Below, piece by piece: positions 3,641 to 38,915 of a stretch of 39,507 bases of DNA. The notes beneath the pieces are model-generated. The model was given only the letters and a program-made list of their open reading frames with translations. It ran no database searches and was not told the origin of the DNA. Position numbers and translations under genes: made by a program. The DNA is taken from IMG/VR virus record IMGVR_UViG_3300025078_000008, positions 1 to 39,507 of that record. One strand, written 5' to 3'. The number at the start of each line of letters is the position of its first letter. The first letter of the stretch is position 1. This DNA comes from a virus. Taxonomy: Duplodnaviria; Caudoviricetes.

Positions 3641-3672
3641 TGACGAAGCAGGGTGTTAACACAGTAAATCAC
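3641..3672 (+). repeat. 32-bp dispersed motif copy A
   Basis: TGACGAAGCAGGGTGTTAACACAGTAAATCAC. Confidence 0.65.
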
Positions 3673-3726
3673 ATACGTTTTATAAAAAGTGAAATATATT
3701 TATATTATAGTTAAACAGGAGATTTA

Positions 3727-4554
3727 ATGAAGTATAGATTTATGATGTTATTGTTGCCTTTTATGTTTAATTGTTCTGACGATCTTTCATCTTATAAAGG
3801 ATATGAAGTTGACTTTAGAGATAAAACTTATTCTGATACAAAGCACGTAGGTTCATCTTGTGATGTAAATTGTATATACTCAAGTTACGCAGTTAAGTAC
3901 AACATACAGAACAAGCAGTATGATTGTATTGAAGGACCTTGCGCTTGTGTTGAAGAAGGAAATGCAAACAACTTATGTGATGTTAACTCTAATCCGCAAG
4001 ACTTGTGGGAGCAAGAAGATATTAGTTCATCTCAAGAGACAATTAAAGTAGGTGTAATACCATACTACAATCAGTACGATAATATAAATTACCCAAGTTC
4101 TACGTGTCAAAATACATCTATAGCTATGGTGCTAAGCAAATTTCAATATAAAATACATCCAGATGATATATTTGGTAGATGGGGAAAAGATCTTGCACAG
4201 TCGCCGTCAGGATTAAATTATGTATATAAACATTATGCAACTAACAGTTCAATAAACACATACACTAATGCAACACCTGAAGATTTGACTAATGCGTTAG
4301 ATAACGGTTATATAGTTATAGTGCATGGATATTTCACTTCTTTTGGACACGTTTTAATAATTAAAGGATACGATGATAGTTATTATTATGTTAACGATCC
4401 TGCGGGAGTTTGGGATGGTTGTTTTAAATGTGGGTATAGTCAAAGTTATAATGGTGTAACTCAATACCCACGTCAATCTTTAGAGAACGCAGTTTTTACA
4501 TCTGACGGTTATTCTTATTTGCCTGGCTGGATCCACCTTATAAAAGGGAATTAA
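3727..4554 (+). CDS. lipoprotein with peptidase C39-like domain
   Basis: Signal peptide ending FMFNC; YYNQ, TCQNTSIAMVL (Cys), GHVLIIKGYD (His), YVNDP (Asp). Confidence 0.8.
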   Translation: MKYRFMMLLLPFMFNCSDDLSSYKGYEVDFRDKTYSDTKHVGSSCDVNCIYSSYAVKYNIQNKQYDCIEGPCACVEEGNANNLCDVNSNPQDLWEQEDISSSQETIKVGVIPYYNQYDNINYPSSTCQNTSIAMVLSKFQYKIHPDDIFGRWGKDLAQSPSGLNYVYKHYATNSSINTYTNATPEDLTNALDNGYIVIVHGYFTSFGHVLIIKGYDDSYYYVNDPAGVWDGCFKCGYSQSYNGVTQYPRQSLENAVFTSDGYSYLPGWIHLIKGN

Positions 4555-4555
4555 A

Positions 4556-5191
4556 ATGAAGTCTTATTTTGCTGCCTGTTTATACTTTTTTATAATTATG
4601 AACAATATATCATATGGTCAAAGTTATGAATGCGACAATAATTTTGAAGAATGTGGAACACCCAATCAGTCCGGTGGTAGTGGAGGAGAAGGTTCTATTC
4701 TAATTGCAAATACTGACCTGGGTGATTCGTATCAACATGCTGATGACTTTGATGATGATGGTATAGAAGACCCAACAGATAATTGTCTAAGGTATCCTAA
4801 TCCCGACCAGCTTGATAGAGACAGTGATAGTATAGGAGATATGTGTGACAACTGTTTAAATGTATGGAATCCAGAGCAGAGTAATATTGATGGTGATGAG
4901 CATGGCGATTATTGTGATGATGATATAGATAATGACCAGATTTTAAATTCTGCTGACGAGTGTCCTCTTCATTGGGGAAACTTATCTTGCTTTAATTCTT
5001 ATGAACCAGAATTAAAACCGACAAACAATCATCAACATAATTATAAAATGAATACTAACGTATCAACGTTGGGAAACACAAATCAAGTAATTACAAATAG
5101 TTGTGTAACTTCATCACAGAAAGAATCACTGTTTTACTTTGTGATAATCTTTTTTACAATTCTTGTATATAAAAGAGTGAAAAAGATTTAG
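4556..5191 (+). CDS. thrombospondin type-3 repeat surface protein, MtsC-like, with MYXO-CTERM-like tail
   Basis: Signal peptide; D.D.DG..D..DNC...NPDQ.D.D.D..GD.CD repeats; C-terminal Cys + TM helix + KRVKK. Confidence 0.8.
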   Translation: MKSYFAACLYFFIIMNNISYGQSYECDNNFEECGTPNQSGGSGGEGSILIANTDLGDSYQHADDFDDDGIEDPTDNCLRYPNPDQLDRDSDSIGDMCDNCLNVWNPEQSNIDGDEHGDYCDDDIDNDQILNSADECPLHWGNLSCFNSYEPELKPTNNHQHNYKMNTNVSTLGNTNQVITNSCVTSSQKESLFYFVIIFFTILVYKRVKKI

Positions 5192-5195
5192 ATTT

Positions 5196-5227
5196 TGACG
5201 AAGCGTAACGTATGAATATTGAGTCAC
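5196..5227 (+). repeat. 32-bp dispersed motif copy B
   Basis: TGACGAAGCGTAACGTATGAATATTGAGTCAC. Confidence 0.7.
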
Positions 5228-5388
5228 GTAATAGGATTGGTATTATAAAGACGGGAAAGTTAAAAGGGAGTTTATGTTTAGTATTGTCTGAAAGTTGTTT
5301 TTTGACTAGCGACAATTTGAAGTGGTTTAGAATTTATGTAGATAATAAACTACTAAGAATGTATGAGAAAAATATACGTCTATTGTAA
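5212..5388 (+). CDS. hypothetical protein (58 aa)
   Basis: MNIESRNRIG...NIRLL*; fills gap, stop lies in the TTGTAA of the next promoter. Confidence 0.45.
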   Translation: MNIESRNRIGIIKTGKLKGSLCLVLSESCFLTSDNLKWFRIYVDNKLLRMYEKNIRLL

Positions 5389-5411
5389 AAACAAACTACT
5401 TGACATATACT
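5383..5411 (+). promoter_or_regulatory. promoter variant TTGTAA-N17-TATACT
   Basis: Same geometry as the - strand promoter family; followed by AAGGAG RBS. Confidence 0.5.
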
Positions 5412-5547
5412 TACAAGACAAACATAAGGAGACTTGCATGTTTAAAAAAGAAGAATCATACGCATATATTTATTTAGCAGTAACTTATTTTATTGCTTTT
5501 ACAATACCAAGTTTAATTAAATTATTTTAAAAAAGAAAGAAGAAAAA

Positions 5548-5790
5548 ATGTCTGGTGGTTTTAACGAAGAAGTAGTAGTGTTAACAACAAATCCAAAAGA
5601 TAAGGTTGTGAGTTTTTTAAACGATCTAAGAGTGTTATTGAATAAACATAATGCAAAACTCTATGCTACAGATTGTGAATTATTTATGAACGGATTAGGA
5701 TATGTTGGAATGCTAGAAGACAATATAGAGACAACAGAAATATCAGATGGTAATGAACTGTTATATACTTCTAGTGTAAAATCACAATAA
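5548..5790 (+). CDS. hypothetical protein
   Basis: ORF ending before convergent terminator. Confidence 0.6.
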   Translation: MSGGFNEEVVVLTTNPKDKVVSFLNDLRVLLNKHNAKLYATDCELFMNGLGYVGMLEDNIETTEISDGNELLYTSSVKSQ

Positions 5791-5803
5791 AAGTTGCAAA
5801 TAC

Positions 5804-5828
5804 AAAAAAACCAGCGAAAAGCTGGCTT
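5804..5828 (-). terminator. rho-independent terminator between convergent genes
   Basis: CCAGC-gaaaa-GCTGG stem with A7 on + strand (U7 on - strand). Confidence 0.7.
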
Positions 5829-5858
5829 GTTAATGACTATAACTCTTGTATAGTTTTA

Positions 5859-8487: not shown

Positions 8488-8706
8488 TTACTCCAGCTTA
8501 ATTAATTTTGAAAGCTTAGGTTTTTTGTCATCCCAGTATCTGATACAAGGAATCTTGTTAGGCGAGAATATTATATATTCTTTGTAACTTGTTGATTTAC
8601 CGATAGTTTTAGTATTAACGCCTATTATTATAGAAAAACTATCAATTTTTTTATTATTATTTTTAACAATCTTAACTAAATCACCAACTTTAAATATTGT
8701 TTTCAT
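8488..8706 (-). CDS. small KVGDL-type (SH3/KOW-like) phage protein
   Basis: FKVGDLVKI N-terminus. Confidence 0.55.
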   Translation of the reverse strand: MKTIFKVGDLVKIVKNNNKKIDSFSIIIGVNTKTIGKSTSYKEYIIFSPNKIPCIRYWDDKKPKLSKLIKLE

Positions 8707-9322
8707 CTATTAAAATATCATCTATGGAAATTATTCCCAACATATCTAACTCATCTTTAGAAACTACTTTTTCTACTTTTTCTTTAATACTAATATCATT
8801 TCTTAATAAGCCACTTTCAAGACCAAGATTATGTGGGACACCTTCTAGATTTTGTATAAACTTATCATTTACGTAATGATTATCTATATAAATCTTTATG
8901 TGTTTATCTAGTTTCGATCCCCATAGTCTAAGATGAAACTTAGTATACCCTTTAGATGAAGAACCAAATCTTATCCAAGCAATACCAGAACTTTCAAACA
9001 AGTCTAACATATTAGAAGACAAACTAAACATTTCAGAATTAGTATCCGCAATCTTCATCTCAGTTGTTAATACTTCTTTTATCTTAACCCACACAGGATT
9101 ATCTTCATCAGCAGAAATTTTAGCCCAAGCTCTGCCCCTACCAGAAAATATAGACTTAATACTTGAATTATTAGTATGACTTATATTTAATGCACCATTA
9201 ATTGCTTCGTTAAATATATCTCTTAAGATTGTTAGTTTAACTTTTTGATTGCTTTGTTCGAGTTCATTGATTGCACTAGAAACAGCAGGAAAAATTATTT
9301 TTCTAATTGATTGAATGTCCAT
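8690..9322 (-). CDS. hypothetical protein, five-paralog family
   Basis: FSGRGRAW, AWIRF, GSKLD, GVPHNLGLE. Confidence 0.75.
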   Translation of the reverse strand: MDIQSIRKIIFPAVSSAINELEQSNQKVKLTILRDIFNEAINGALNISHTNNSSIKSIFSGRGRAWAKISADEDNPVWVKIKEVLTTEMKIADTNSEMFSLSSNMLDLFESSGIAWIRFGSSSKGYTKFHLRLWGSKLDKHIKIYIDNHYVNDKFIQNLEGVPHNLGLESGLLRNDISIKEKVEKVVSKDELDMLGIISIDDILIDENNI

Positions 9323-10473: not shown

Positions 10474-11031
10474 TTAAAAGTTTTCTTCGTATATATTATT
10501 AACTTTTAAGAACTCATACCACTCTTCTAATTCTCTGTCTGTAGGCTTTGTTAGTGATGCTTCTTTAATAACTCTAATTTCTTTTTCAATGTTAACTTCA
10601 AGTACTTCTTCACTATCCTCTTTCTTAGCAATAAACTTTCTTGGATATTCTGTTTTCTTAGCTTTTCTACAGACAGGATCTATTTCATACTGCAACTTGT
10701 AAGGTGTGTTACCTAACAAAGAAAAGTGTTGTGCAATTTTATCTTCAATTAAGACTGTAAAGTCTGGATGATCTATTTTTGAACCTTTATATCTTACTTC
10801 AAACCTTATTAAGGGATCACTGGAAGAACCTTCAACTCTAGTAAATCTAATCCAGAAAAACCCTTCTCTGTCTGTGTGATTTGTGTATTCTGATACATTA
10901 TCTTTTGGTTGTGTATCAAGTAAATCTTGAATCTGTCTTGATCCTTCTTGATCCTTCATAACCTTGACCCAGGAGTTTCCTCTTCCTTTGTATCTTTCCT
11001 GAATTGTTTTTTTAAAAGAATTTTTCGACAT
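10474..11031 (-). CDS. hypothetical protein, five-paralog family
   Basis: YKGRGNSW, FWIRF, FEVRYKGSKIDHP, GNTPYKL. Confidence 0.75.
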   Translation of the reverse strand: MSKNSFKKTIQERYKGRGNSWVKVMKDQEGSRQIQDLLDTQPKDNVSEYTNHTDREGFFWIRFTRVEGSSSDPLIRFEVRYKGSKIDHPDFTVLIEDKIAQHFSLLGNTPYKLQYEIDPVCRKAKKTEYPRKFIAKKEDSEEVLEVNIEKEIRVIKEASLTKPTDRELEEWYEFLKVNNIYEENF

Positions 11032-15128: not shown

Positions 15129-15176
15129 AATAAACTCCTTTCTATGTCTGTGTCTGTAATTGTTAAATTACGGGAA

Positions 15177-15261: not shown

Positions 15262-15283
15262 TTAGTGTGTATCTATATTATAT

Positions 15284-26158: not shown

Positions 26159-26161
26159 GTG

Positions 26162-27674: not shown

Positions 27675-27720
27675 ATTTAATGTCCTTTTTAAATGATTTT
27701 TTGTTTTTGCCTTGTGATAT

Positions 27721-27749
27721 ATTATAATCACGATTTTTTTTATTTACAC
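27721..27749 (-). promoter_or_regulatory. promoter GTGTAA-N17-TATAAT; -35 is Val-stop of upstream ORF
   Basis: Exact match. Confidence 0.78.
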
Positions 27750-28001: not shown

Positions 28002-28017
28002 ATTACCTACTTTAACT

Positions 28018-28269: not shown

Positions 28270-28498
28270 CTGAAAATCCTCTTTCTTTTTCTGTAACATC
28301 ATCCTTCATTTCTTCATCATCTTCTCCAAAACGATATAACCAGTCATCTAGAAAATCATCGTCACTCGCTTCAAAGTAATCCTGCATGTTTTCATAAACA
28401 TATGCAACAAGATCACTCATGTTCATACCTTCGATGATGTTCTTAATGAGTTTATCTCTATTTTCGTAATTGTTTTGCGCCATGTTTTGTTTCCTCAT
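28262..28498 (-). CDS. hypothetical acidic protein
   Basis: ORF; start probably MAQNN. Confidence 0.6.
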   Translation of the reverse strand: MRKQNMAQNNYENRDKLIKNIIEGMNMSDLVAYVYENMQDYFEASDDDFLDDWLYRFGEDDEEMKDDVTEKERGFSDD

Positions 28499-28670
28499 TA
28501 CTAATTGTATATAGATTTGGCAATAAATGCAAGTAGTATTTGTGTTAAAAGATAAAAAGCTAATGATAAGCTTGTTGAAGCTGTCCTATCAAAGATAAGA
28601 AACCCACCAGCAATGGGTACAATAAATAATAAGCTGAACGGCATTGGTACAATAGTCACTTAATCAACCT

Positions 28671-28922
28671 TTATTCTGAGAACACTTTAACATCAACATC
28701 ATTCCCGTGATTATCTTCAACTTTAATCTCAATCGTTATATAACTCTCATGAACAGGATCTTTATTGAGAACCCAAGTAAAACCACTACCAACTTTAGTA
28801 GGCACGACAAAACTATCCCAATAGTCTATAAAGTCTTTGATCTCAACTTCGTTCATATTCTCTTCTGAAGAATCCCATCCACCTTTAACATAGAACTTTG
28901 TAATATAAGCTTTATAGTTCAT
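28671..28922 (-). CDS. hypothetical protein
   Basis: ORF in operon. Confidence 0.6.
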   Translation of the reverse strand: MNYKAYITKFYVKGGWDSSEENMNEVEIKDFIDYWDSFVVPTKVGSGFTWVLNKDPVHESYITIEIKVEDNHGNDVDVKVFSE

Positions 28923-28927
28923 TAGTC

Positions 28928-29170
28928 TTAATCCTCATCTTCTTCTTCTTCTTCATCATCATCACCATCATGCCACTCATTAATTGTGTCTTGCATGCTG
29001 CACATACTACCACCTAAATAACCATGATCATCATCCAAAGCAACAATTATTTGTGAATACCAATACGACTCAGCTCGAGCTCTTGCATGTGTAGGAACAA
29101 GGTCAAAGGCTTCTTCAAGTAACTCTTTAATCTGCATTTTAATTTCTTCGAATAAATATTTATCAGACAT
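28928..29170 (-). CDS. hypothetical protein with acidic tail
   Basis: TAATG coupling; RAESYW. Confidence 0.65.
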   Translation of the reverse strand: MSDKYLFEEIKMQIKELLEEAFDLVPTHARARAESYWYSQIIVALDDDHGYLGGSMCSMQDTINEWHDGDDDEEEEEDED

Positions 29171-29340
29171 TAGTTATACACCCTTCTTATTAGTTTGCGT
29201 TTACCATCTTCAGTAACACCCCAGATGGAGCCTGAATATAGATTAATCATCGATGCAGAAGTAAAAGAACTAAACCTTAAAGGCTTAAATCTTTTGCCAC
29301 CTCTCATCTTGCCTGTTACTTCGAATCTTGTAAAATACAT
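29170..29340 (-). CDS. hypothetical protein (56 aa), paralog of 30487..30657
   Basis: Not in track; MYFTRFEVTGK...INLYSGSIWGV..DGKRKLIRRVYN*. Confidence 0.75.
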   Translation of the reverse strand: MYFTRFEVTGKMRGGKRFKPLRFSSFTSASMINLYSGSIWGVTEDGKRKLIRRVYN

Positions 29341-29795
29341 TAGTTAACCTCCATTTCAATCAAATCTTTAATCAACTCAAAACCAATTAATCTGTTATTA
29401 ACCCTAACTTTTATATGTGTATACTGTGCATATAATTCTTCTTTGCCAATCTTCCACATTTCAACATCACCTATAGTTGGTTCGTTTTGGTCTTTGTTAA
29501 CATGTCTGTAAGCAATAAATTCATCATCAGAGTAATCAAAGTTTTTCTCGATGAACTCTTTAAAATTATTATATTGTGTGTAATGTATAAGAACATTTTC
29601 AACTGCAGATTTTAGCCCTATGCTTAAAAAGTCAGGATTAGTATCAAACGATCTTTCGTAAAACGATGAAGTATAATAAACTTCTTCTAGCTCTCCCTCT
29701 TCATAAGCGTCTAGTATAATAGATCTGTCACAAACGATACTTACAGTATAGTCTTCACATATTGCGGCGTTTAGTTTTTGGATTGTTGGATTCAT
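29340..29795 (-). CDS. hypothetical protein, paralog of 30659..31117
   Basis: CDR...LD.YEEGE, EPTIGD.E.WKIG.E.L..QYT. Confidence 0.8.
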   Translation of the reverse strand: MNPTIQKLNAAICEDYTVSIVCDRSIILDAYEEGELEEVYYTSSFYERSFDTNPDFLSIGLKSAVENVLIHYTQYNNFKEFIEKNFDYSDDEFIAYRHVNKDQNEPTIGDVEMWKIGKEELYAQYTHIKVRVNNRLIGFELIKDLIEMEVN

Positions 29796-29841
29796 ATATT
29801 ATATCCTTTTTGATTGAATGATTGAATGTACCTTATGGTAT

Positions 29842-29871
29842 ATTATAATATAAAATAAATCTTATTTACAC
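29842..29871 (-). promoter_or_regulatory. promoter GTGTAA-N18-TATAAT
   Basis: Exact hexamers; upstream stop abuts the -35. Confidence 0.78.
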
Positions 29872-30186
29872 TTAAGGATTACCTGGAACCCTAAACGTTA
29901 ACTTAACAAAGTCTGTTCTCCAAATCCCATCTCCACCATCAAAATAGTGATATGCATAATGACCAGAACTACCATGAACGTCTTCCCAAGTGTTAGTATA
30001 ATTCTCTATCTCATCCACTCCCTTACACGTTCTTACTAACCTACAATGATACATACCACTATTCTTCTTAGATATATACTCTTCACTCCTATGCACTATC
30101 TTCGTCTTACCAACATACTTGGATGCTGGATCCACTAACTGTTTCCTCATCCTACTATCTCGCCACTGTTCTGAAAAATGAAACAT
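29872..30186 (-). CDS. hypothetical protein, paralog of 23717..24028
   Basis: Shared motifs as above. Confidence 0.75.
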   Translation of the reverse strand: MFHFSEQWRDSRMRKQLVDPASKYVGKTKIVHRSEEYISKKNSGMYHCRLVRTCKGVDEIENYTNTWEDVHGSSGHYAYHYFDGGDGIWRTDFVKLTFRVPGNP

Positions 30187-30227
30187 GTTTTACCCTTTCA
30201 TATCTCCAACATTTGAAAATAAATATT

Positions 30228-30428
30228 TTAAACATTAGCCATTACAAGCTTGTACTTTTTTCTGTTGTTGTAAATAGTAGTATAACTAAAAAGCATATAT
30301 CTATTACCAAGAATACTTTCTGTATGCTTAATTGCATCTTCAGCAGTATCACTTTTAAATAGTATTCTTCCATTCTTACCAATCGGTTCTTGACCACTGT
30401 CTGATGACTTGTATGCATAAAACTTCAT
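30228..30428 (-). CDS. hypothetical protein, paralog of 22197..22403
   Basis: MKFYAYK. Confidence 0.65.
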   Translation of the reverse strand: MKFYAYKSSDSGQEPIGKNGRILFKSDTAEDAIKHTESILGNRYMLFSYTTIYNNRKKYKLVMANV

Positions 30429-30486
30429 ATCTTATCCCTTCAAATATGAATTATGTTTGCTGCTGTAAAAGAGAAATCACTGTTAC

Positions 30487-30657
30487 TTAATTGTATACTC
30501 TTCTTAACAAACTACGCTTACCATTTTCTTGAACACCCCAGATAGAACCCTGATAAAGATTAATCATCGCTGCAGCATTGAAACTTGAAAACGTCATCTT
30601 CTTAAACCTAGAACCATCTCTACGTTTACCTGTTACTTCAAATTTTACAAAGTTCAT
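30487..30657 (-). CDS. hypothetical protein, paralog of 29170..29340
   Basis: FEVTGK...INLYQGSIWGV..NGKR.L.RRVYN. Confidence 0.75.
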   Translation of the reverse strand: MNFVKFEVTGKRRDGSRFKKMTFSSFNAAAMINLYQGSIWGVQENGKRSLLRRVYN

Positions 30658-30658
30658 T

Positions 30659-31117
30659 TTATCTTTCCTCTTTAACGTCAAGTAAAGCTAAGACTAGATC
30701 TAAATCAATCTGTCTGTTATTAATCTTTATACCAATTCTCGTATATTGGTTGAAAAGAATTTCTTCACCAATCTTCCATAATTCTATATCACCGATTGTC
30801 GGTTCTTCATAGTTTCTATTTACTTGTTGTAAAACAATAAAATCGTAATCTGAATCATTAAAATTGTCTTTCATACATTCTTCAAGAGTATCATACTGTG
30901 TATGAATCTTTAAAAAGTCTTCAATCATCTCTTTGAGATTGTCTTTAAGATCACCTACTGTTGATTCTCGATCGACACAATAAAAAAGTTCATCATACTC
31001 TTCAGACTGCATCTCGCCTTCTTCATACCTGTCCAAGAACAACTCTCGATCACAGTCTAACGTGATTGTATACTCTTGACATATTACTTCGTTTAATTCA
31101 CGAATTACTTTATCCAT
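30659..31117 (-). CDS. hypothetical protein, paralog of 29340..29795
   Basis: Shared motifs. Confidence 0.8.
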   Translation of the reverse strand: MDKVIRELNEVICQEYTITLDCDRELFLDRYEEGEMQSEEYDELFYCVDRESTVGDLKDNLKEMIEDFLKIHTQYDTLEECMKDNFNDSDYDFIVLQQVNRNYEEPTIGDIELWKIGEEILFNQYTRIGIKINNRQIDLDLVLALLDVKEER

Positions 31118-31171
31118 ATTATTTTTCCTTTTGATTGAATAATTGATTGATTGATTGATTCCTTATAATAT

Positions 31172-31201
31172 ATTATAATATGAAGTTAATCTTATTTACA
31201 C
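31172..31201 (-). promoter_or_regulatory. promoter GTGTAA-N18-TATAAT; -35 is Val-stop of upstream ORF
   Basis: Exact hexamers. Confidence 0.78.
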
Positions 31202-31387
31202 ACATATAACAACTACACTCTTTGTATCCTCATCTTCTTCAAAAGCGATAACATTCCCACCAACAGTCATCTCCGCTTCAATCGGCATCTTATTTAACTT
31301 AACTATCTCATCATGATTTAACTCAACAAAGACTTCAGCAGTCTCATCATACTTACTCAACATCTCGATCAACTCTAATACAGACAT
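31196..31387 (-). CDS. hypothetical protein
   Basis: V.ELIE.L..Y....EV motif; single-gene cassette between two promoters. Confidence 0.65.
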   Translation of the reverse strand: MSVLELIEMLSKYDETAEVFVELNHDEIVKLNKMPIEAEMTVGGNVIAFEEDEDTKSVVVICV

Positions 31388-31440
31388 TATATTTTCCTTT
31401 TAAATGATTATTTGTTTGTTTGTTTGTTACCTTATGATAT

Positions 31441-31470
31441 ATTATACACCAAATATAATCTTATTTACAC
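31441..31470 (-). promoter_or_regulatory. promoter GTGTAA-N18-TATAAT
   Basis: Exact hexamers. Confidence 0.78.
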
Positions 31471-31482
31471 ATTAATATTATA

Positions 31483-31983
31483 TCACATATTAAACCCAAA
31501 AGTCAAAGATAATCTATGTCCAGTATGTCGGAGATCCCTATGATAATCATCTCTAATTTGATTTGAAGGTACCCAAGATAAGTTCAAAGGTAGATTCAAA
31601 TCTCCTACACTAAAGCTATACCCAACAGCAACAACTAAACCAACACCCGTTAAAGATAGATTAGGTCCAACACCTAACTCAAAACCACTCTTCGTTCTTA
31701 AACCAATTATGGAAGTTATTGATGGTAATACATATCCCTTCTCTATACCACCCGCTAAAAGCACCCACTCTACTAAGCCAGCCAACTCCTCTCCAGAAAC
31801 AAATCTTGTTTCAAATTGCCAACCATACTGCGTTATAAAACTTCCATCAATCTCCTTCGTTATCTCCCCAGGGGTAATATACGTAAACCCCAATCTAGGT
31901 CCAGATAACTCTTTAGGCTCAGCTCTCACTACTGACGCTGATAATATAATCGCTGAAACTACTAATACTATAATCTTCTTCAT
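31483..31983 (-). CDS. secreted / outer-membrane beta-barrel-like protein
   Basis: Signal peptide ending VRA; Gly/aromatic alternating strands; C-terminal LSLTFGFNM. Confidence 0.65.
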   Translation of the reverse strand: MKKIIVLVVSAIILSASVVRAEPKELSGPRLGFTYITPGEITKEIDGSFITQYGWQFETRFVSGEELAGLVEWVLLAGGIEKGYVLPSITSIIGLRTKSGFELGVGPNLSLTGVGLVVAVGYSFSVGDLNLPLNLSWVPSNQIRDDYHRDLRHTGHRLSLTFGFNM

Positions 31984-31993
31984 AAACAATCCT

Positions 31994-32263
31994 CTATTCT
32001 TCAACATGACAAATACTAGATCTTACTAGTCTCCCGTCTAAAGTTTTAAAACTCCAGATACCACCTCTATGATTTGAAGGTGATACCATATTATCAAAGT
32101 TAATGTCATAACTCTTTACTTCTCTACTACCGGGCATTTCACAATGTACTTTGTATATACTTTCTTTCCTCTTGTTATACTTCTGTTTATGCTTGATCCT
32201 CTCCTCTGAAGTTGTACACCCACAAAAGAAAATCGCTGCTGATAATAAAACAAATAACTTCAC
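31994..32263 (-). CDS. putative lipoprotein, paralog of 23437..23709
   Basis: GTG start after AAAGG; FFCGC lipobox; GIWSFKT. Confidence 0.7.
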   Translation of the reverse strand: MKLFVLLSAAIFFCGCTTSEERIKHKQKYNKRKESIYKVHCEMPGSREVKSYDINFDNMVSPSNHRGGIWSFKTLDGRLVRSSICHVEE

Positions 32264-32279
32264 AATAAACCTTTCTAAA

Positions 32280-32732
32280 TCAATAACACTCAGACCAATG
32301 CTCACCTGTCTCTTCACCCCATTGAGAACGTGAAGATAAGAGCTGCCCACTTCCATTATAATCAGCACCACACACGCTGCAAGTATTAGTAAACTTACCT
32401 AAACTCAACCAAGCATCACAACACTTAACCTGCGCTGACTCCCTGTAAAAGAATTCATTCTCATAATATCCCAGTTCATAATCTCCACTCTCTAAAACAC
32501 GTAGATAATTCTGATAACCCATATCACCCTCTTCACTCCACTCTCCCCACCCCATATCTTCAAACATCTCCTTACGCGCAGCAATATAAGATTCATGAAA
32601 AACCTCAACACCTTCAGAATAATCTCCTCCATGTACTTCAAAATCACAGATACCTTCCATACTATGACTCATATAAGATGTTCGCTGATAACGTGTTTTA
32701 GTTTGCGCTGGTACAAAATTTATGCTGCTCAT
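32280..32732 (-). CDS. hypothetical protein with C-terminal zinc ribbon
   Basis: CC...NTC..CG.DYN.SGQ.L..RSQWGEETGE. Confidence 0.65.
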   Translation of the reverse strand: MSSINFVPAQTKTRYQRTSYMSHSMEGICDFEVHGGDYSEGVEVFHESYIAARKEMFEDMGWGEWSEEGDMGYQNYLRVLESGDYELGYYENEFFYRESAQVKCCDAWLSLGKFTNTCSVCGADYNGSGQLLSSRSQWGEETGEHWSECY

Positions 32733-33073
32733 TATACTACCCTTTTATTTGTTTGTTTCTTAGTGTTGAGTTGAGGATTATACACATTAATATATTCTAT
32801 TTCTCTTTGATGAGTTTGTTTCTTACCACGTACAACTTCTATTACTTCATATCTAAAGTTCTCATAACCATATCTTCTCATTTCCTGATATAACAACCAC
32901 TTCTTACCAGATGTCTTACAACGGGATATATGCTGCTTAAAACGTAACTTCACACTACCAATAACTTTTTGATCTCTTTGCACAGTAATACCAATATACT
33001 CGTTACCTGTCTCATCATTCGTGAGCCTGTAGATTATATGATTCCTATCAGATCGTTTCTTTCTCTTTATCAT
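32732..33073 (-). CDS. GIY-YIG endonuclease (catalytic domain only)
   Basis: IIYRLTN...YIGIT, RFKQH, YG.ENF, RE...I, N motifs. Confidence 0.85.
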   Translation of the reverse strand: MIKRKKRSDRNHIIYRLTNDETGNEYIGITVQRDQKVIGSVKLRFKQHISRCKTSGKKWLLYQEMRRYGYENFRYEVIEVVRGKKQTHQREIEYINVYNPQLNTKKQTNKRVV

Positions 33074-33091
33074 ATATCCTCCTTATATAAT

Positions 33092-33121
33092 ATTATAATA
33101 CAATCAAAATCTAACTTACAC
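33092..33121 (-). promoter_or_regulatory. promoter GTGTAA-N18-TATAAT; -35 is Val-stop of upstream ORF
   Basis: Exact hexamers. Confidence 0.78.
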
Positions 33122-33310
33122 GTTAATAACCCTATAAACATAATCATTCCACTCTGAATATAATATATTCAACTGCCTAACATGACTACTCTTATTTAAA
33201 ACCAATAAATAAATAGAATTTAAATTGTCACAACGCTCTGAAACTATTAATCCATAATACTCATTATCTCTCGCTAAGATATCTCCAACTTTAAAATGCC
33301 TACTAGTCAC
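33116..33310 (-). CDS. small KVGD-type protein
   Basis: FKVGDIL...YGLIV. Confidence 0.55.
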   Translation of the reverse strand: MTSRHFKVGDILARDNEYYGLIVSERCDNLNSIYLLVLNKSSHVRQLNILYSEWNDYVYRVINV

Positions 33311-33939
33311 TTTCCTATGATTCTTTCAAACACATCTTCAAAGTTCTCATACACAACATCAGGAACGCTATCAACTAATGAATCATACGACGTAGATAAA
33401 AAACTCCAACTCCTCCCCTCTCCTATCCCACCACTTCTCCAATAACCCTGCTCATACATGTCTACAAAAAATACTATATAACTCTCACTGACATATACAT
33501 CCTGAAAATACACATACAACAAATCATTCTTTCTACCAACTTCTACAACCTCTCTAACACTTAAATCTTCAAAGCTGTCTCCAAAAAACTCTCTAACACT
33601 TTCAAACCTAACTGTTACTCCCCTACTCCTCTCTACACTACCTCTCTCTCTTAACATATACTCACACATTCTACGCATAGAAAAACTTCTATCTCCCGCA
33701 CGCCTAACTAAAGCTTTCTTCCCAAATAATTCAAAACAACTATCATCAACTCTACACTCAATCTCAATGTCCTCTCTACTTTTTCTTTCATTAAAAGCTA
33801 TTAAATCAAATTCGTAGCCATCGTCTTCATCGTCTTCATAATCATCATCATCACTATACCCTCTCGATGAATAATATCTTTCATTGTTAGGATTACACTG
33901 CATACTCCGATTATCATTAACTGTATATCTTCCCATCAC
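33307..33939 (-). CDS. hypothetical protein
   Basis: N-terminal NDNRS.Q.NPNN..Y.SSRG motif; AGGAG RBS. Confidence 0.65.
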   Translation of the reverse strand: MMGRYTVNDNRSMQCNPNNERYYSSRGYSDDDDYEDDEDDGYEFDLIAFNERKSREDIEIECRVDDSCFELFGKKALVRRAGDRSFSMRRMCEYMLRERGSVERSRGVTVRFESVREFFGDSFEDLSVREVVEVGRKNDLLYVYFQDVYVSESYIVFFVDMYEQGYWRSGGIGEGRSWSFLSTSYDSLVDSVPDVVYENFEDVFERIIGK

Positions 33940-33970
33940 ATCTCCTCTTATAAATAATTCTCTACACTCT

Positions 33971-34207
33971 TCAAATATCTACCTCTTCTAACTTCTTCTC
34001 AAGTCGCCTAATCTCAAAACCTAACTCATTAGACTCCCTCACCTCCCCCCTCCTCTCACACTCTTCTCTCCTCTTCAAAAGCTCCCTAATCTCTTTCCTC
34101 ACCCTCACACTCGGCCTCGAACCAAACGCCATCAACCACATCACACCATATACTAACAACACACTACTCAAACCTACTACTACTGCTACTACTACTTCTC
34201 TTACCAT
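33971..34207 (-). CDS. small membrane protein
   Basis: TM helix then charged coil; G-rich codons. Confidence 0.5.
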   Translation of the reverse strand: MVREVVVAVVVGLSSVLLVYGVMWLMAFGSRPSVRVRKEIRELLKRREECERRGEVRESNELGFEIRRLEKKLEEVDI

Positions 34208-34410
34208 CTCTTCTCTCCTCTTCACTCCACAATATATAAACATTAACTCCACAATAAACAACAAGTGGCCGAAAAGATCTTCTGTTAACACTTCTCACCT
34301 CGACCCATAGTAAACACCCAAAAACAAAAAAAACCAAAACAGCGTCAACGTCGTGATTCTATTATGACTCACCATACCTACCCTACACGACCAAGCTAGG
34401 GAAGCGCGCT

Positions 34411-34430
34411 GATTTTGATAATCATTATCA
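34411..34430. promoter_or_regulatory. Fur-box-like palindrome
   Basis: GATTTTGATAATCATTATC is 17/19 to GATAATGATAATCATTATC; perfect 7-1-7 TGATAAT-C-ATTATCA. Confidence 0.6.
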
Positions 34431-34502
34431 TTTACATTTTTTTCAATTCTGTCCCGGGGAAAGTAGTCAAGAAGCTGTGCTACGTGAGACAGAGTGGCCT
34501 GA

Positions 34503-34880
34503 TTAGAAAGAGCTAACGTTGTTATTTATAACCCAATCACACACGATCTCTTCTGACATATCGTATCCTTCTTCGTTAAAGAAGTTTTGGGCAATGTTTA
34601 AACCCTCGTCAAAGGTGATGGGAGCTCTTGCTTGTTCACTGCCGTTATAGACTGTGAGCGTGCCCATTAAAGAGTTATTTTTAATGATGAGGTCGAAACC
34701 CGGGACGTTGTGACGATCGTAGTTATCGTAGCAGAAGTAGCGAGTATTGTTAGTTTTATTGCTATCAATCTTTTCAGACCCTACGTACATTGTATCTGTA
34801 GGTTGTTTAGTGTCTATGCGGTTTTTTGAAACAGCGTTGATGAGTTTATTCCATTGTTTGATATTGATTAGATTATTCAT
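34503..34880 (-). CDS. hypothetical protein
   Basis: AAAGGA RBS after promoter. Confidence 0.65.
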   Translation of the reverse strand: MNNLINIKQWNKLINAVSKNRIDTKQPTDTMYVGSEKIDSNKTNNTRYFCYDNYDRHNVPGFDLIIKNNSLMGTLTVYNGSEQARAPITFDEGLNIAQNFFNEEGYDMSEEIVCDWVINNNVSSF

Positions 34881-34912
34881 TATGTAAATCCTTTGGATGG
34901 TGGTTGTGATAT

Positions 34913-34942
34913 ATTATAATAGGTGAGAGAGCAGAGTTACAC
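34913..34942 (-). promoter_or_regulatory. promoter GTGTAA-N18-TATAAT
   Basis: Exact hexamers. Confidence 0.75.
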
Positions 34943-34975
34943 ATCGGGTATTATTGTAGAGTTAATTAAAAAGTC

Positions 34976-35056
34976 GCGACTAGATCTACGCAAGAGTTGA
35001 TTAAAGCGTTTGCAGCTGTGACGAGGACGTGACGAGTGGTTATAACGTTGAATCAC
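34976..35056 (+). repeat. extended repeat including 32-bp motif copy D (35025-35056)
   Basis: GCGACTAGATCTACGCAA...AAAGCGTTTGCAG..GTGACGAGGACG shared with 36453-36533. Confidence 0.8.
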
Positions 35057-35068
35057 GTTTTTGGTTAG

Positions 35069-35302
35069 TTATAGAGAAGAAGAGAGGTAGAAGTCTTCGA
35101 GGTCTTTGTTGATATCTTCGAAGTGTTCTCTAACGTGTACACTCTTTCCGCTGTGGAAGTGAATCCAGGTTGTGCCGTTGACGTTGACGTCATCATCATC
35201 TGGGTGTTTGTTTTTGTTTTCTATGATGTGTGAGACAGCTGACATTGAGATGGTTAGAGAAGAGTCGCTATTTACGGTGACGTATGTTTGTAAGCTGTGC
35301 AT
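35069..35302 (-). CDS. hypothetical protein, paralog of 25771..25992
   Basis: WIHFHSGKSVHVR identical. Confidence 0.75.
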   Translation of the reverse strand: MHSLQTYVTVNSDSSLTISMSAVSHIIENKNKHPDDDDVNVNGTTWIHFHSGKSVHVREHFEDINKDLEDFYLSSSL

Positions 35303-35345
35303 ATTATTTATTCCGTTTCTGTTTGCTATTTTTTTAGACTCTGGG

Positions 35346-35418
35346 CCCGGGGAAAGTTAGTTCAAAGCGTTGTTAGAGGTGACGAAGACGAAGGGAGGGC
35401 GTTATGATGGTGGGGCAG
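35346..35418 (+). repeat. degenerate extended repeat copy
   Basis: CCCGGGGAAAGT (also at 34453) then TCAAAGCGTT..AGAGGTGACGAAGACG. Confidence 0.6.
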
Positions 35419-35436
35419 TATCGATGAGGGAGCGAG

Positions 35437-35691
35437 TTAGTTGACAAAGACTTCTGGGTGAGACATTAATATGCCGGAGCATAGTGTGACGTATTTGTTA
35501 GCGGAGTACATTTGTTTATGAGGTGGCATAGAGCGTGTGCTGTATAGCCAGCCTTTAGTGGGTTTGCAGTATGTTTGAACGTATTTTTGTAGAGCGTTTG
35601 TATTGCTAGTAGTTTTATTTAGAGAGAACAGTATTCCCCCTGAGATACAGACTAAGAGTATGAGTAGAGTTTCTATGATAGTTGTTTTCAT
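35437..35691 (-). CDS. hypothetical membrane-anchored protein
   Basis: N-terminal TM. Confidence 0.5.
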   Translation of the reverse strand: MKTTIIETLLILLVCISGGILFSLNKTTSNTNALQKYVQTYCKPTKGWLYSTRSMPPHKQMYSANKYVTLCSGILMSHPEVFVN

Positions 35692-35783
35692 TTATAGCAG
35701 CTTTCGAGTTTAACTGTGGGTTGTGTATTAGTGAAGAGTTTTACAATTCTGAATCGTCATCTCGTTTCTTTTTAAGTTCGTCT

Positions 35784-35827
35784 AACTTGTCGTTAGAGAA
35801 TTCGAACTTGTCGTTAGAGAATTCGAA
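35784..35827. repeat. 21-bp perfect tandem duplication inside small ORF 35741..35875 (-)
   Basis: AACTTGTCGTTAGAGAATTCG x2, encoding FEFSNDK x2. Confidence 0.85.
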
Positions 35828-35986
35828 GATGTAGCCGAAGAAGAAGCCGAGAAAGAATGTGACGAAGTGAATCATTGTTTGTCCTTGAGTAGTTTATTGC
35901 GTTGGTTGATGAGATCTTCTAGTTTACCTGTCAGGCCACGAAGTCTCTCGTTGTGTATAGCTTTGTTGAGTTGTTCTAGCGTCATG

Positions 35987-36340
35987 TTATCTTCTCATCT
36001 CTAACCATTGATCTAGAGTGAATGTAGTGTTGCCGTCATTGTATTCATAACCCATTTCAGTATCATAAACATATTCAACGTCGTAACGTTCAAGGATAGT
36101 GCTGAGTGCTGCTTGACCAACTTCATAATGTTCTGATGTATCGAAGGGGATATGAGAAACTGATTTTGGGAGAAACTCTTCTTTGATTTGTTGTGTAGCT
36201 TCAGACATATCTTTTGGACCGTATCCTTCGTCTGTGACAAGTATTGTGTCGTCGTTTGGAAAGTTGATGTGGCCGATGCCTGAAGGGAGGCTGCGATAAT
36301 CGATGCTGAAGTAGATGTGATCTTTAAGATTGATATCCAT
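35987..36340 (-). CDS. hypothetical protein
   Basis: AAAGGA RBS after promoter. Confidence 0.7.
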   Translation of the reverse strand: MDINLKDHIYFSIDYRSLPSGIGHINFPNDDTILVTDEGYGPKDMSEATQQIKEEFLPKSVSHIPFDTSEHYEVGQAALSTILERYDVEYVYDTEMGYEYNDGNTTFTLDQWLEMRR

Positions 36341-36381
36341 ATTGGAGTCCTTTTTGATTGTGTGTTAGTGGATTATGGTAT

Positions 36382-36410
36382 ATTATAATATTGTTATTTG
36401 AAAGTTACAC
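36382..36410 (-). promoter_or_regulatory. promoter GTGTAA-N17-TATAAT
   Basis: Exact match. Confidence 0.78.
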
Positions 36411-36452
36411 TTGAAGTGTTTTATTTGTAGTAGTATTTATCTATTAAAAGCT

Positions 36453-36533
36453 GCGACTAGATCTACGCAAAGCTAGATCAAAGCGTTTGCAGAAGTGACG
36501 AGGACGAACCAGCGCGTATGAACGCTGAGTCTG
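36453..36533 (+). repeat. extended repeat including 32-bp motif copy E (36502-36533)
   Basis: Near-duplicate of 34976-35056. Confidence 0.8.
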
Positions 36534-36620
36534 TGAGTGGAGTCATTTAGAGGTCAAGTAAACATATGAACGTCTGGCAGCACTTTGTTATATTTAAGTG
36601 TAGAAAAAAAACGTTCGGCA

Positions 36621-36691
36621 GCGGCGAAAGTTAATCAAAATGTTTGCAGAGGTGATGAGGACGAAACGCTATGGTTAGCGGGCTGAGTTAG
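36621..36691 (+). repeat. degenerate extended repeat / motif copy F
   Basis: GAAAGTTAATCAAAATGTTTGCAGAGGTGATGAGGACGAAAC...CTGAGTT. Confidence 0.65.
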
Positions 36692-36736
36692 CTTTTGATA
36701 GAGAATTGTTTAATCTGTCGAAGCTTGCCTGTAGGT

Positions 36737-36937
36737 TTATAGAGACCAGTTATAGATGAGCCATCCGTGTTCGTCGCTAAGCGCGTCAGTTATTTGGTCG
36801 TCAGAAGCAGAAGTTGGATCTTTGAGATAATCATTGAGGTCGACTTCTGTTGGAACACCATTTTCAGCAGCAAACTCATCGTGCGCCTCAATGCTGTTGT
36901 CTTCTAGATCGAATTCCCATTGTATTTGAATAATCAT
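36737..36937 (-). CDS. hypothetical protein, paralog of 39180..39464
   Basis: QWEFD, GVP..VDLN, ITDALSDE.GWL. Confidence 0.75.
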   Translation of the reverse strand: MIIQIQWEFDLEDNSIEAHDEFAAENGVPTEVDLNDYLKDPTSASDDQITDALSDEHGWLIYNWSL

Positions 36938-36979
36938 ATTGTATCCTGTTTGTTGGTTGGTTGATTTGCCTTATGGTTT

Positions 36980-37008
36980 ATTATAATATATGAGAAGATT
37001 ATTTACAC
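36980..37008 (-). promoter_or_regulatory. promoter GTGTAA-N17-TATAAT; -35 is Val-stop of upstream ORF
   Basis: Exact match. Confidence 0.78.
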
Positions 37009-37260
37009 ATCAAACAGATTAACCATTTGATAGCTTCCTTCTGATACGATGAGTGAAGAATCGAAGAGGTCGTACGATGTGAAGATCATTTCAAGAGTTT
37101 CTGCAGTCGGTTTAATATCAATGCCGTTACGCGTCGTTGTTTTGCATTCTGTAAGGTAGTGATAATATCGTCTCCCACTTTCAGCTTCTTTGTCTGCAGC
37201 AACTCCTGTAGGGAGAGACCACGTGATTGGCTCAACATAGTTTGTATTCTCATCGCTCAT
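37003..37260 (-). CDS. hypothetical protein
   Basis: ATGA coupling, GGAG RBS. Confidence 0.6.
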   Translation of the reverse strand: MSDENTNYVEPITWSLPTGVAADKEAESGRRYYHYLTECKTTTRNGIDIKPTAETLEMIFTSYDLFDSSLIVSEGSYQMVNLFDV

Positions 37261-37523
37261 TTTATCTCCAAATCTTTCATCACGTCGTCTAGAAACCCGT
37301 AGTAACCTGCAACAAAGAAGTAAAACATATATCCTCCAATCATAATAAGAAAACCCGCAGCGTTGTTGTAATGCTCAAAGTAAAACATCGTCGCGAAGAT
37401 AGGTAACAACGCAACAAAAGCTGCGAAGATTAATATACTCATCAAGCATAATCCGCCAAAAAAAAGAATAGCAACTTCTTTCATCGTCGCTAACATCGTA
37501 GGTCTTTCATATCTTCTCATCAT
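37257..37523 (-). CDS. membrane protein
   Basis: Two hydrophobic helices; TAATG coupling. Confidence 0.6.
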   Translation of the reverse strand: MMRRYERPTMLATMKEVAILFFGGLCLMSILIFAAFVALLPIFATMFYFEHYNNAAGFLIMIGGYMFYFFVAGYYGFLDDVMKDLEIK

Positions 37524-37738
37524 TATAACGTGCCTGTTAGGAAAATGTTTTTGAGTTCGTTCATCGAGGGTCCGTTTACTTCGAACCACCACCAGTTCTT
37601 TAACTTGGCTTCGTCGTATCGATCACATATCTGGTCGTCGACGCTGTCGTTCAGGTCAAGGTCCATTAAAACTGTTTTACTTTGTCCGGATTTGTAGATA
37701 AGATCAACTTTGCATTGTCTGATGTATGTCTTTGACAT
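37523..37738 (-). CDS. hypothetical protein
   Basis: AAAGGA RBS after promoter. Confidence 0.65.
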   Translation of the reverse strand: MSKTYIRQCKVDLIYKSGQSKTVLMDLDLNDSVDDQICDRYDEAKLKNWWWFEVNGPSMNELKNIFLTGTL

Positions 37739-37789
37739 TTGAGTATCCTTTGAGAGTTGGTTGGTTGATTTGTTTTTGCCTTATGATAT

Positions 37790-37818
37790 ATTATATCCAA
37801 GGTATATAAAAGTTACAC
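37790..37818 (-). promoter_or_regulatory. promoter GTGTAA-N17-TATAAT
   Basis: Exact match. Confidence 0.78.
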
Positions 37819-37827
37819 GAAGTGGGA

Positions 37828-37859
37828 CGACGTTACCAAGCGTGGTAACACCGAGTCAG
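37828..37859 (+). repeat. 32-bp dispersed motif copy G
   Basis: CGACGTTACCAAGCGTGGTAACACCGAGTCAG. Confidence 0.7.
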
Positions 37860-37873
37860 TATCGGCGTGGGGA

Positions 37874-38566
37874 TTAGAGGTCTTCGTTTTCCATATTCAT
37901 TAGCTCTTCTAGATCACCCATCATATCCTCATAGCTTTCTTCAATAACTGGAGTTTCTGCAGTTTCGCTGAGTTCAACCTCGATCTCATTGACAGCTTCA
38001 ACTTCAACAGCTTCCTCTTCCGCTTCTTGAGGCTTCGCAACTTCTTCGAGTTTGAGTGAGTGAGGAGTTGTATTGATAAAACTGATCGCATCGTCCAAAT
38101 CATGAAGAGGGATGTAGTGAAGCTGTTTTGGGTGATCAAGGGTAGATCCTCCGGTTCGAACTTCGAAAGCTGCTGCCTTAACTCCGTTATTGATGCGTGG
38201 TCCACTGAATCTGATCCAAGCTTGACCTTGATCTGTAATAAACTTTGAGTAATCCTCTATATCAACTCCTTGCTCGCCGAGTGATGTGAGAGTTGGTTGG
38301 ATATTTTCCAGGCTGACAAAGACCCATTTCATTCCTCGACCTCCGAACTTGGTTTTCACCTCACTACGCCAATCAGTACCATCAGCTGATTTGCCAGATC
38401 GAGTGCAGAGAGGTTTAATATCTGAGTTAATGAGTTGATCAAGGTGTCGTTTGAAAGCTGTAACTTTGGGTTCGCCACCGTTATCAACAAAAGTCTGAAA
38501 GATGTTTTGAATGTTTGACATAACTGTTTCCTCTGATGAGATGATTTGTGTGTTTGAGTTTTCCAT
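37874..38566 (-). CDS. hypothetical protein with acidic tail, five-paralog family
   Basis: Close paralog of 26162..26920. Confidence 0.85.
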   Translation of the reverse strand: MENSNTQIISSEETVMSNIQNIFQTFVDNGGEPKVTAFKRHLDQLINSDIKPLCTRSGKSADGTDWRSEVKTKFGGRGMKWVFVSLENIQPTLTSLGEQGVDIEDYSKFITDQGQAWIRFSGPRINNGVKAAAFEVRTGGSTLDHPKQLHYIPLHDLDDAISFINTTPHSLKLEEVAKPQEAEEEAVEVEAVNEIEVELSETAETPVIEESYEDMMGDLEELMNMENEDL

Positions 38567-38606
38567 GTTAAGGATCCTTATTTTGATTGGTTGGTTATTA
38601 TGTTTT

Positions 38607-38635
38607 ATTATAAATGGATTTGAGATTAGTTACAC
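38607..38635 (-). promoter_or_regulatory. promoter GTGTAA-N17-TATAAT
   Basis: Exact match; leader nearly identical to next copy. Confidence 0.78.
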
Positions 38636-38846
38636 TTAAGGAGTTATAAACCCTAGAAACCTTTTAAAGCTTCCAACTCTTTAGATAAGAAGTAAGCATC
38701 ATCTGCGTATTGTCTCGCTGTTGAGTAGTCTCCAATCTTTTCAGCGGTTTTTGATTTGTTTAGAAGCTGTTGAATGATTTTGCGAAGTTTTTGTTTTGAT
38801 GGGGACTTCATTTTGAATCCTTTTGGTTGGTTGGTTATTATGTTTT

Positions 38847-38875
38847 ATTATAACTAAACTCTTAAAGAGTTACAC
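38847..38875 (-). promoter_or_regulatory. promoter GTGTAA-N17-TATAAT
   Basis: Exact match. Confidence 0.78.
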
Positions 38876-38883
38876 GAATCAAA

Positions 38884-38915
38884 CGACGTTACCAGGGGTG
38901 TTAACCCTGAGTCTT
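38884..38915 (+). repeat. 32-bp dispersed motif copy H
   Basis: CGACGTTACCAGGGGTGTTAACCCTGAGTCTT. Confidence 0.7.

Follow-up and report, generated by a model that had tools for sequence, protein, structure and literature searches.

A polar 29–30-bp motif at the first early promoters of uncultured marine T4-like jumbo phages: a candidate operator

Described systems nearest to motif A

Operator arrays at phage early promoters are already a known kind of regulatory arrangement, and it is against them that we set motif A, a gapped, strand-polar DNA motif found in a 39.5-kb virus record (IMGVR_UViG_3300025078_000008; "the window" below means this whole stretch of 39,507 nt) and in its relatives. 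In the cluster A mycobacteriophages, the accessible portions of the reports on L5 gp71 and the TipsytheTRex repressor describe asymmetric multi-copy sites at promoters and in short intergenic gaps, in a fixed orientation, and propose one repressor for both initiation and elongation; these stoperators are 13-bp contiguous sites, more than 20 of them across the temperate genome, oriented with local transcription (PMC9283540, PMC1934351). The PeSL cassettes of T4-like phages, so far as the source papers are accessible, place a strong sigma70-type early promoter with a stem-loop terminator upstream between ORFans of a hyperplastic region, and gene swaps among them break in the promoter repeats (PMC4122927, PMC2839356). 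For T5, the available part of an in silico study, together with the genome annotation, gives conserved non-coding repeat arrays in a ~9–10-kb terminal segment that is expressed first, has fluid genes and ends on its inner side in a complex element (bioRxiv 10.1101/866236; NC_005859).

Motif A shares with operators and stoperators its asymmetry, its multiple copies and its placement at promoters and in intergenic gaps. It differs from stoperators in being 29–30 bp long and gapped, in occurring about 7–10 times per 240 kb, in clustering at one end of the genome and in being centred near −60. Its orientation is fixed against early transcription, a distal pair of copies faces with its + strand genes, and Pfam names no repressor, integrase or RNA polymerase over ~289 of the 308 open reading frame (ORF) calls of the long relative G006, most of which have no Pfam match. 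The likeness to PeSL cassettes lies in repeated GTGTAA-17/18-TATAAT promoters, fluid gene content, breaks in promoter repeats and a T4-like genome, but there is no stem-loop terminator, and motif A occurs at promoters only within the first ~9 kb and also away from promoters. As in T5, conserved non-coding elements lie in a start segment of ~9 kb, although here the terminal repeat is one that we infer. T5 is a siphovirus with palindrome and DnaA-box arrays, whereas the present clade is of T4-like myoviruses, and motif A has no sequence likeness to T5 (best match in the T5 ends, 8.7 bits). The probable inner end of the repeat, where T5 has its injection stop signal, is marked here by a second motif (motif B) and not by motif A; family-wide, motif A is non-palindromic, and the B region has inverted repeats. 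Chromosome motifs of the KOPS and Chi type are short, strictly polar and genome-wide; motif A shares their strict polarity but shows no genome-wide excess in G006 as compared with a reversed control.

We propose, with a probability of about 0.5, that motif A is the asymmetric 29–30-bp operator of a putative phage protein that shuts off the first early promoters. No published description of motif A was found in the literature searched, in which subscription journals were thinly covered.

Copies, conservation and polarity of motif A

Copies are numbered here by the 1-based start of their informative core. The first-pass annotation of the window had reported seven co-oriented, ungapped copies of a 32-bp motif and two degenerate ones. 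All seven are where it placed them, on the + strand only and matching the pattern it gave, and a related IUPAC pattern (at most 2 mismatches) has 7 matches in the window, whereas 100 dinucleotide shuffles yield 0.07 on average and never more than 1. In leave-one-out analysis every held-out copy ranks in the top 7 of ~79,000 positions, and a position weight matrix built from relatives only (112 sites, each sharing under 75% identity with every window copy) finds the 7 window copies and no others at 22–34 bits, the next match scoring 6.6 bits. The matrix and shuffle check that the annotation had suggested thus puts the matches far above background and in one orientation. The two copies listed as degenerate, at 35386 and 36659, are real as well: with one inserted base, those at 35387 and 36660 fit at 16 and 21–22 bits, respectively.

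Other parts of that description need adjustment. The informative core is 29–30 bp (starts 3642, 5197, 26128, 35026, 36503, 37829 and 38885) rather than 32 bp, and the copies, described as dispersed over 35 kb, are in fact clustered, with six of the nine in the last 4.5 kb. They are indeed GC-richer than the background (51% on average against 32% for the window), and the placement at gene boundaries holds except for copy 5197, which lies on a start codon, and copy 36503, whose end is 205 nt from the nearest stop codon. The loose inverted ends are present in the window copies; family-wide only GACG is near-invariant, the right end is variable, and the motif is not palindromic. The copies are as follows.

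3642–3670, + strand: motif A, distal copy 1, flanked by a terminator-like hairpin on one side and by the promoter region of ORF 3727–4554 on the other
5197–5225, + strand: motif A, distal copy 2; its positions 16–18 are the ATG of ORF 5212–5388, in 8/8 orthologs compared
26128–26156, + strand: motif A, promoter-free, 5 nt beyond the stop codon of paralog 26162–26920; weak ortholog at G006:222859
35026–35054, + strand: motif A, starting 47 nt after the start of motif B
35387–35416, + strand: motif A, 30-bp variant with one extra base, starting 47 nt after the start of motif B
36503–36531, + strand: motif A, 47 nt after the start of motif B; the 157-bp unit containing this copy is absent from close strains
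36660–36689, + strand: motif A, 30-bp variant, 47 nt after the start of motif B
37829–37857, + strand: motif A, upstream of a − strand early promoter at 10 nt from its −35 box
38885–38913, + strand: motif A, upstream of an early promoter at 9 nt from its −35 box; adjoins the stop codon of ORF 38914–39108

The window, found in marine and seawater sequencing runs, encodes a ligase, homing endonucleases, Hsp20, four tRNAs and many small − strand ORFs, and belongs to an uncultured marine T4-like jumbo phage. Small shares of its sequence occur in two RNA runs, one of which, examined at contig level, gives no strand or start-site information. Among its longer relatives, G005 and G006 carry T4-like head genes (gp23, gp20, gp21 and terminase families); G006, of 239,550 bp and rated complete, is syntenic with the window in reverse and has its early block at ~206.2–238.8 kb on one strand and most of the remainder on the other. 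No close cultured relative was found (best ligase ~33%, best terminase ~39%), the right end of the window has a single, chance-like 45-bp match to deposited sequences, and the clade is without a match among 50,697 deposited phage records.

Loci from relatives, 1.22 Mb in total, were fetched through the early gene at 37874–38566 (the anchor gene), with L063 (a 277-kb contig) and L072 (a 100-kb contig) covered within the fetched flanks. They contain 151 distinct sites with the consensus GACGnnnCnRRRSGTnnnMACnnYRARWC, while the reversed control of the same loci has no match above 15 bits. The motif is present in 81 of the 86 anchor loci and runs against early transcription in 227 of 231 matches; of the four exceptions, two look coding and two overlap a stronger copy on the opposite strand. 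In a dereplicated set of 76 sites, C8, S13-S14-T15 and Y24-R25-A26-R27 are strongly conserved beside the near-invariant GACG. The conserved blocks (positions 1–4, 13–15 and 24–27) recur about once per helical turn, the pattern that would be expected if a protein bound one face of the DNA. Within the G005 locus L025:12830–12915, the right half of motif A is expanded to three tandem 28-bp units.

G006 has about ten sites of varying strength, with no excess across its ~200-kb core. Outside the clusters, gapped matrices find 6 places above 10 bits in this genome, against 21 raw matches in the reversed control, and two of the broader roles considered, genome-wide nucleoid organisation and translocation marking, are thus not supported.

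Motif A is read as sequence at the DNA level. The 76 dereplicated sites show no base-pair covariation (intramotif complementarity peaks at z 2.9, whereas the null maximum averages 3.3), RNAalifold gives the seven window copies 0 pairs, Rfam finds in the window only tRNAs and one chance-level match, and no terminator call overlaps a motif A copy within 24,000–39,507. Together with the polarity kept across the clade, these results bear out the proposal in the first-pass annotation of a polar DNA-level site spanning about three helical turns and not an RNA. Single copies can be drawn as GAC...GTC hairpins and many closely follow a stop codon, as would suit a structured RNA or single-stranded DNA element (a terminator, a processing site, a small ribozyme or a single-strand initiation site), but the lack of covariation, consensus pairs, Rfam matches and terminator calls, and the occurrence of copies in both orientations relative to genes, make such an element hardly credible.

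Three other candidates were set aside. A hammerhead-like reading of the context GTGATGA-GGAC-GAAAC met no Rfam match and no covariation, and this context is the linker between motifs B and A. A site of the Dam or CcrM type would need GANTC, which is at positions 25–29 in only 23 of the 76 sites. As for a host regulon, the promoter-plus-motif pattern gave 88 scattered single matches in 596 Gb of species genomes (median 11.6 bits), with no genus repeated beyond a few enterobacteria. In viral contigs, 15 of the 22 loci with this pattern belong to the present clade; the other 7 score below 16 bits, five of them without a stricter match.

The early promoter and its relation to motif A

The early promoter of the clade is of the sigma70 type, GTGTAA-17/18-TATAAT, and occurs 20 times on the − strand of the window. 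Two of these promoters are paired with a copy of motif A.

37790–37818, − strand: early sigma70-type promoter (GTGTAA, 17 nt, TATAAT), paired with copy 37829
38847–38875, − strand: early sigma70-type promoter, paired with copy 38885

These two are the only window copies that show the tie, and the first-pass annotation therefore missed it. Its statement that the motif is not the early promoter is true to the letter, but across relatives 56 of 80 dereplicated copies start at most 14 nt upstream of an early −35 box. The gap is exactly 10 nt in 35 of these 56 and 9–11 nt in 48, although the 10-nt linkers themselves are only 40% identical, and promoter-adjacent copies span about −46 to −75 with a centre at about −60. 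At 20 of 68 motif-less promoters the upstream stop codon is inside the promoter or no more than 1 nt from it, and the gap is therefore specific to motif-bearing promoters rather than a result of mere tight packing. The distance from motif A to the upstream stop codon is broadly spread, with many copies within a few bases after the stop. Early promoters with motif A are confined to the ~9-kb segment at the start of the early block (19 of 58 there and 0 of 40 elsewhere in the block, counted in four related and hence non-independent genomes), and promoters of the same type in the G006 core have none (0 of 15). The early promoters are themselves co-oriented, which explains most of the co-orientation of motif A; what had been taken as a sign of genome-level polarity mostly follows the promoters, with two or three promoter-free loci remaining.

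On the operator reading, a putative phage protein would bind motif A head-to-tail, one helical turn upstream of the first early promoters, and would act there on the host RNA polymerase. Silencing would be more likely than activation, because the site is missing from promoters of identical type elsewhere, and because a phage protein made only after infection begins is not yet there at the start. At promoter-free sites, as at stoperators, the bound protein would stop polymerase coming from the early side, and would let it pass in the opposite direction; such one-way passage would explain how copy 5197 can overlap a start codon.

The promoter-free copies are themselves conserved. Among 10 loci whose ligase is at least 70% identical and that extend at least 2.2 kb downstream, 9 have the pair at 3642 and 5197 in the same polarity and the tenth has one copy; the pair is absent downstream of the ligase in 25 loci with a ligase identity of at most 49% (the scan covered 49 of 66 loci, those with a partial ligase match being left out). 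Between distal orthologs, identity in the consensus columns is 84% and 79%, as against 45% and 36% in the left flanks and 55% and 64% in the right flanks. Copy 5197 contains the start codon of a conserved small ORF in 8/8 orthologs. Copy 26128 has a weak G006 ortholog (10.9 bits) after the same paralog and with the same polarity; it was probably duplicated together with the neighbouring gene. Promoter-independent polarity at genome level rests on these two or three loci. A terminal repeat ending at 3.6–5.2 kb was considered and dropped, no depth step being found there, and there is no skew anomaly at the distal pair. Many ligase-bearing contigs stop 0.1–0.7 kb beyond the ligase, just short of distal copy 1, and the G006 assembly both starts and ends on distal copy 2 (G006:22–50 and 239431–239459).

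Copy 3642 lies between a terminator-like hairpin and a + strand gene in 8/8 orthologs compared, a position that would also suit a promoter. Promoters are likewise polar and gapped, and motif A could be one for an alternative or phage-modified RNA polymerase, with GACG as a −35-like and YRARWC as a −10-like element, placed back-to-back with the early promoter and firing against the early genes, motif B then serving as an activator site. The left end reads TTGACG in 19 of the 76 dereplicated sites, and G006 encodes an RpoD-like sigma factor (L110:6015–6761) that ends before the region-4 helix-turn-helix, as well as a separate 87-aa region-4 protein (L118:4653–4913) beside an Hc1-like gene of the histone-H1 type; the factor and the region-4 protein may form a split sigma factor. 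We nevertheless consider such a promoter improbable: motif A is absent from the AT-rich stretches upstream of the core, structural and late genes of G006, its interior is GC-rich (54%) with conserved central bases, the DNA downstream is no more AT-rich than the background (68%), and no phage RNA polymerase was found by Pfam.

Strain comparisons show the gene content of the segment region to be very fluid, and gene insertions and deletions between strains break mostly in promoter repeats. Some strains carry, and others lack, a 157-bp unit lying between two B+A repeats. Co-oriented copies at gene boundaries in such a region would be consistent with a direct-repeat, site-specific recombination site that moves early-gene cassettes in the manner of an integron. 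However, homology ends are spread from −77 to +14 in 31 one-side pairs, 16 of them at −47 to −77 near the −10 box and leader, and from +13 to +46 in 7 reciprocal pairs, so there is no fixed crossover among these 38 non-independent pairs, and no integrase family is named among the ~289 G006 ORFs. The recombinase site, another role first suggested for the motif, is thus very improbable.

A candidate for the binding protein, by position only, is the product of the anchor gene.

37874–38566, − strand: early gene from a family that has several paralogs throughout the clade and an acidic tail; candidate binder by position only; anchor gene

The family has 980 protein relatives and four paralogs in the window (37874–38566, 26162–26920, 10474–11031 and 8690–9322), with invariant aromatic and basic residues in addition to the acidic tail, and in three relatives a paralog is the first long gene met beyond the transcription divergence point. 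The predicted fold comprises a helical hairpin, an SH3/Tudor-like barrel and the acidic tail. The protein has no PHROG, no meaningful Pfam family, no Atlas match and no Foldseek match at E 0.001; its best VIA-align matches, SH3/Tudor-like barrels that include the polymerase-binding domains of CarD and Mfd, reach only Z 4.8–4.9, too weak to use. For the small basic protein 38914–39108, Atlas gives only leads below 0.9.

Within the − strand early block, two genes lie on the + strand: 15566–16102, weakly like a DNA polymerase beta domain (E 4e-4), and 16103–18286, without a Pfam or PHROG match; read depth in the DNA run X14 is lower there. One of the four tRNAs, of 87 nt at 15176–15262, is called as Ile with anticodon TAT. 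G006 has a family A polymerase fragment together with a DNA polymerase III alpha subunit, and also encodes a GroEL-type chaperonin, purine salvage enzymes, UvdE and S-adenosylhomocysteine hydrolase.

Motif B and the ends of the ~9-kb segment

The motif A cluster lies in a ~9-kb segment whose inner boundary is marked by motif B, of ~35 bp, with five copies in the window. Wherever motif A follows motif B, its start is 37 or 47–48 nt after that of B.

34400–39507, no strand: inner portion of the motif-rich ~9-kb segment with which the early block begins; probable long direct terminal repeat, cut off by the contig end
34446–34480, + strand: motif B, at the skew switch; probable inner end of the terminal repeat
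34979–35013, + strand: motif B, paired with motif A at 35026
35340–35374, + strand: motif B, paired with motif A at 35387
36456–36490, + strand: motif B, paired with motif A at 36503
36613–36647, + strand: motif B, paired with motif A at 36660

The 3' extension of motif B contains an inverted repeat whose arms change together in some relatives, and in four loci (L010, L088, L092 and L104) motif B occurs as an inverted pair ~197 bp apart. Just before the boundary copy in the window, at 34416–34430, stands a perfect 7-1-7 palindrome, TGATAATCATTATCA, kept in several relatives and presumably similar to a Fur box. The outer end of the segment is a conserved GC-rich module at the transcription divergence point, which has CCCCGGGG palindromes (L025:13930–14030 in G005, and likewise in G001–G004 and G006) and is a candidate for the outer genome end; CCCGGGG-like words are found in boundary copies of motif B as well.

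GC skew flips at motif B in 9 of the 10 loci with data on both sides, several of which are close strains, the tenth flipping 800 nt off. These inner flips (window ~34,400; G006 ~214.7 kb; G001 ~31 kb; G005 ~4.6 kb) lie between same-strand genes and fade over 2–4 kb. At fourfold-degenerate sites the sense strand has C 0.29 and G 0.04 inside, C 0.04 and G 0.20 outside, and ~0.07 of each farther away. In G001, G005 and G006 there is a second flip at the outer end, giving two switches ~9 kb apart. Such a flip points to DNA that stays single-stranded for a long time to either side of a genome end or an origin. Depth of the contig rises ~1.6-fold to the right of ~35 kb in two of three DNA runs (X1, from 21–27 to 36; X9, from 5.2–5.5 to 8.1–9.0), with the proviso that contig depth is not copy number and that X1 may be the source run. 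The ~9-kb segment is likely a long direct terminal repeat carrying the first-expressed genes; a replication origin at motif B is the alternative for its inner boundary.

The same features could be read with promoter adjacency as secondary, motif A being a polar site at which the machinery of a genome-end DNA transaction is loaded or positioned, such as staged entry, repeat duplication, packaging or assembly of an origin together with B. The cluster is flanked by the two conserved skew switches, the inner one at motif B and visible at fourfold-degenerate sites, and the two spacings from B to A, 37 and 47–48 nt, differ by a one-turn step. In relatives the three promoter-free copies have the same absolute polarity (9 of 10 close loci for the pair, G006:222859 for the third), and the distal pair lies immediately beyond the point where the early block ends and early transcription would cease to pull. 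In T5, the accessible part of the source ties a terminal repeat with conserved repeat arrays to two-step injection (bioRxiv 10.1101/866236). Such a site would leave the sharp 10-nt gap to the −35 box unexplained, however, the distal pair has neither skew anomaly nor depth step, polarity is the same, not mirrored, on both sides of the inner switch, and Pfam names no translocase and no T5 A1/A2 family in the G006 set, where unnamed genes dominate. On balance we regard this, the main rival of the operator reading, as somewhat unlikely.

A bolder version, which we think rather unlikely, makes A and B polar loading or phasing sites of an unknown end-processing or staged-entry machine acting on a 9-kb terminal repeat. 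Motif A would mark the first-entering DNA and fixed stations ~8 kb and 25–29 kb beyond the repeat, the last station lying just where transcription-driven pulling would end, and B would mark the inner end.

Several observations weigh against an operator for the first early promoters of a terminal repeat. Among the 80 dereplicated copies, 24 have no promoter within 14 nt (10 have one at 61–119 nt, 14 none within 200 nt), and for the displaced copies helical phasing with the promoter does not reach significance (n = 10, Rayleigh p 0.26). Since the distal pair points the same way as its local + strand genes, orientation does not track local transcription, unlike that of stoperators. A site near −60 is more often that of an activator than that of a repressor. 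The fixed gap could in part be inherited through duplication of promoter cassettes, and fetching loci by the anchor gene over-represents the motif A copy beside that gene in the matrix. The anchor fold has no significant structural match (VIA-align best Z 4.8–4.9), and Pfam names no repressor-type or phage-regulator family among the segment genes. Finally, the terminal-repeat reading is indirect: the third DNA run, X14, has no clear depth step, and the known repeat ends of T5, our positive control, show no comparable skew flip; skew alone is therefore no proof of a terminal repeat.

If the operator reading is true, an abundant clade of uncultured marine phages controls the timing of its first genes through a long asymmetric operator that stands where the PeSL cassettes of T4-like phages have a hairpin, and this would be a new regulatory part. 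The 151-site matrix is well defined and ready to be used for discovery of the binder. Even in T5, according to the available part of the source, the shut-off of the first genes, the duplication of the repeat and staged entry are still open questions (bioRxiv 10.1101/866236). The map of A and B sites, together with the sharp mutational switch at B, offers concrete positions at which such questions can be asked, and should the bolder version be true, it would provide a sequence handle on terminal-repeat duplication or on the stepwise uptake of a 250-kb genome.

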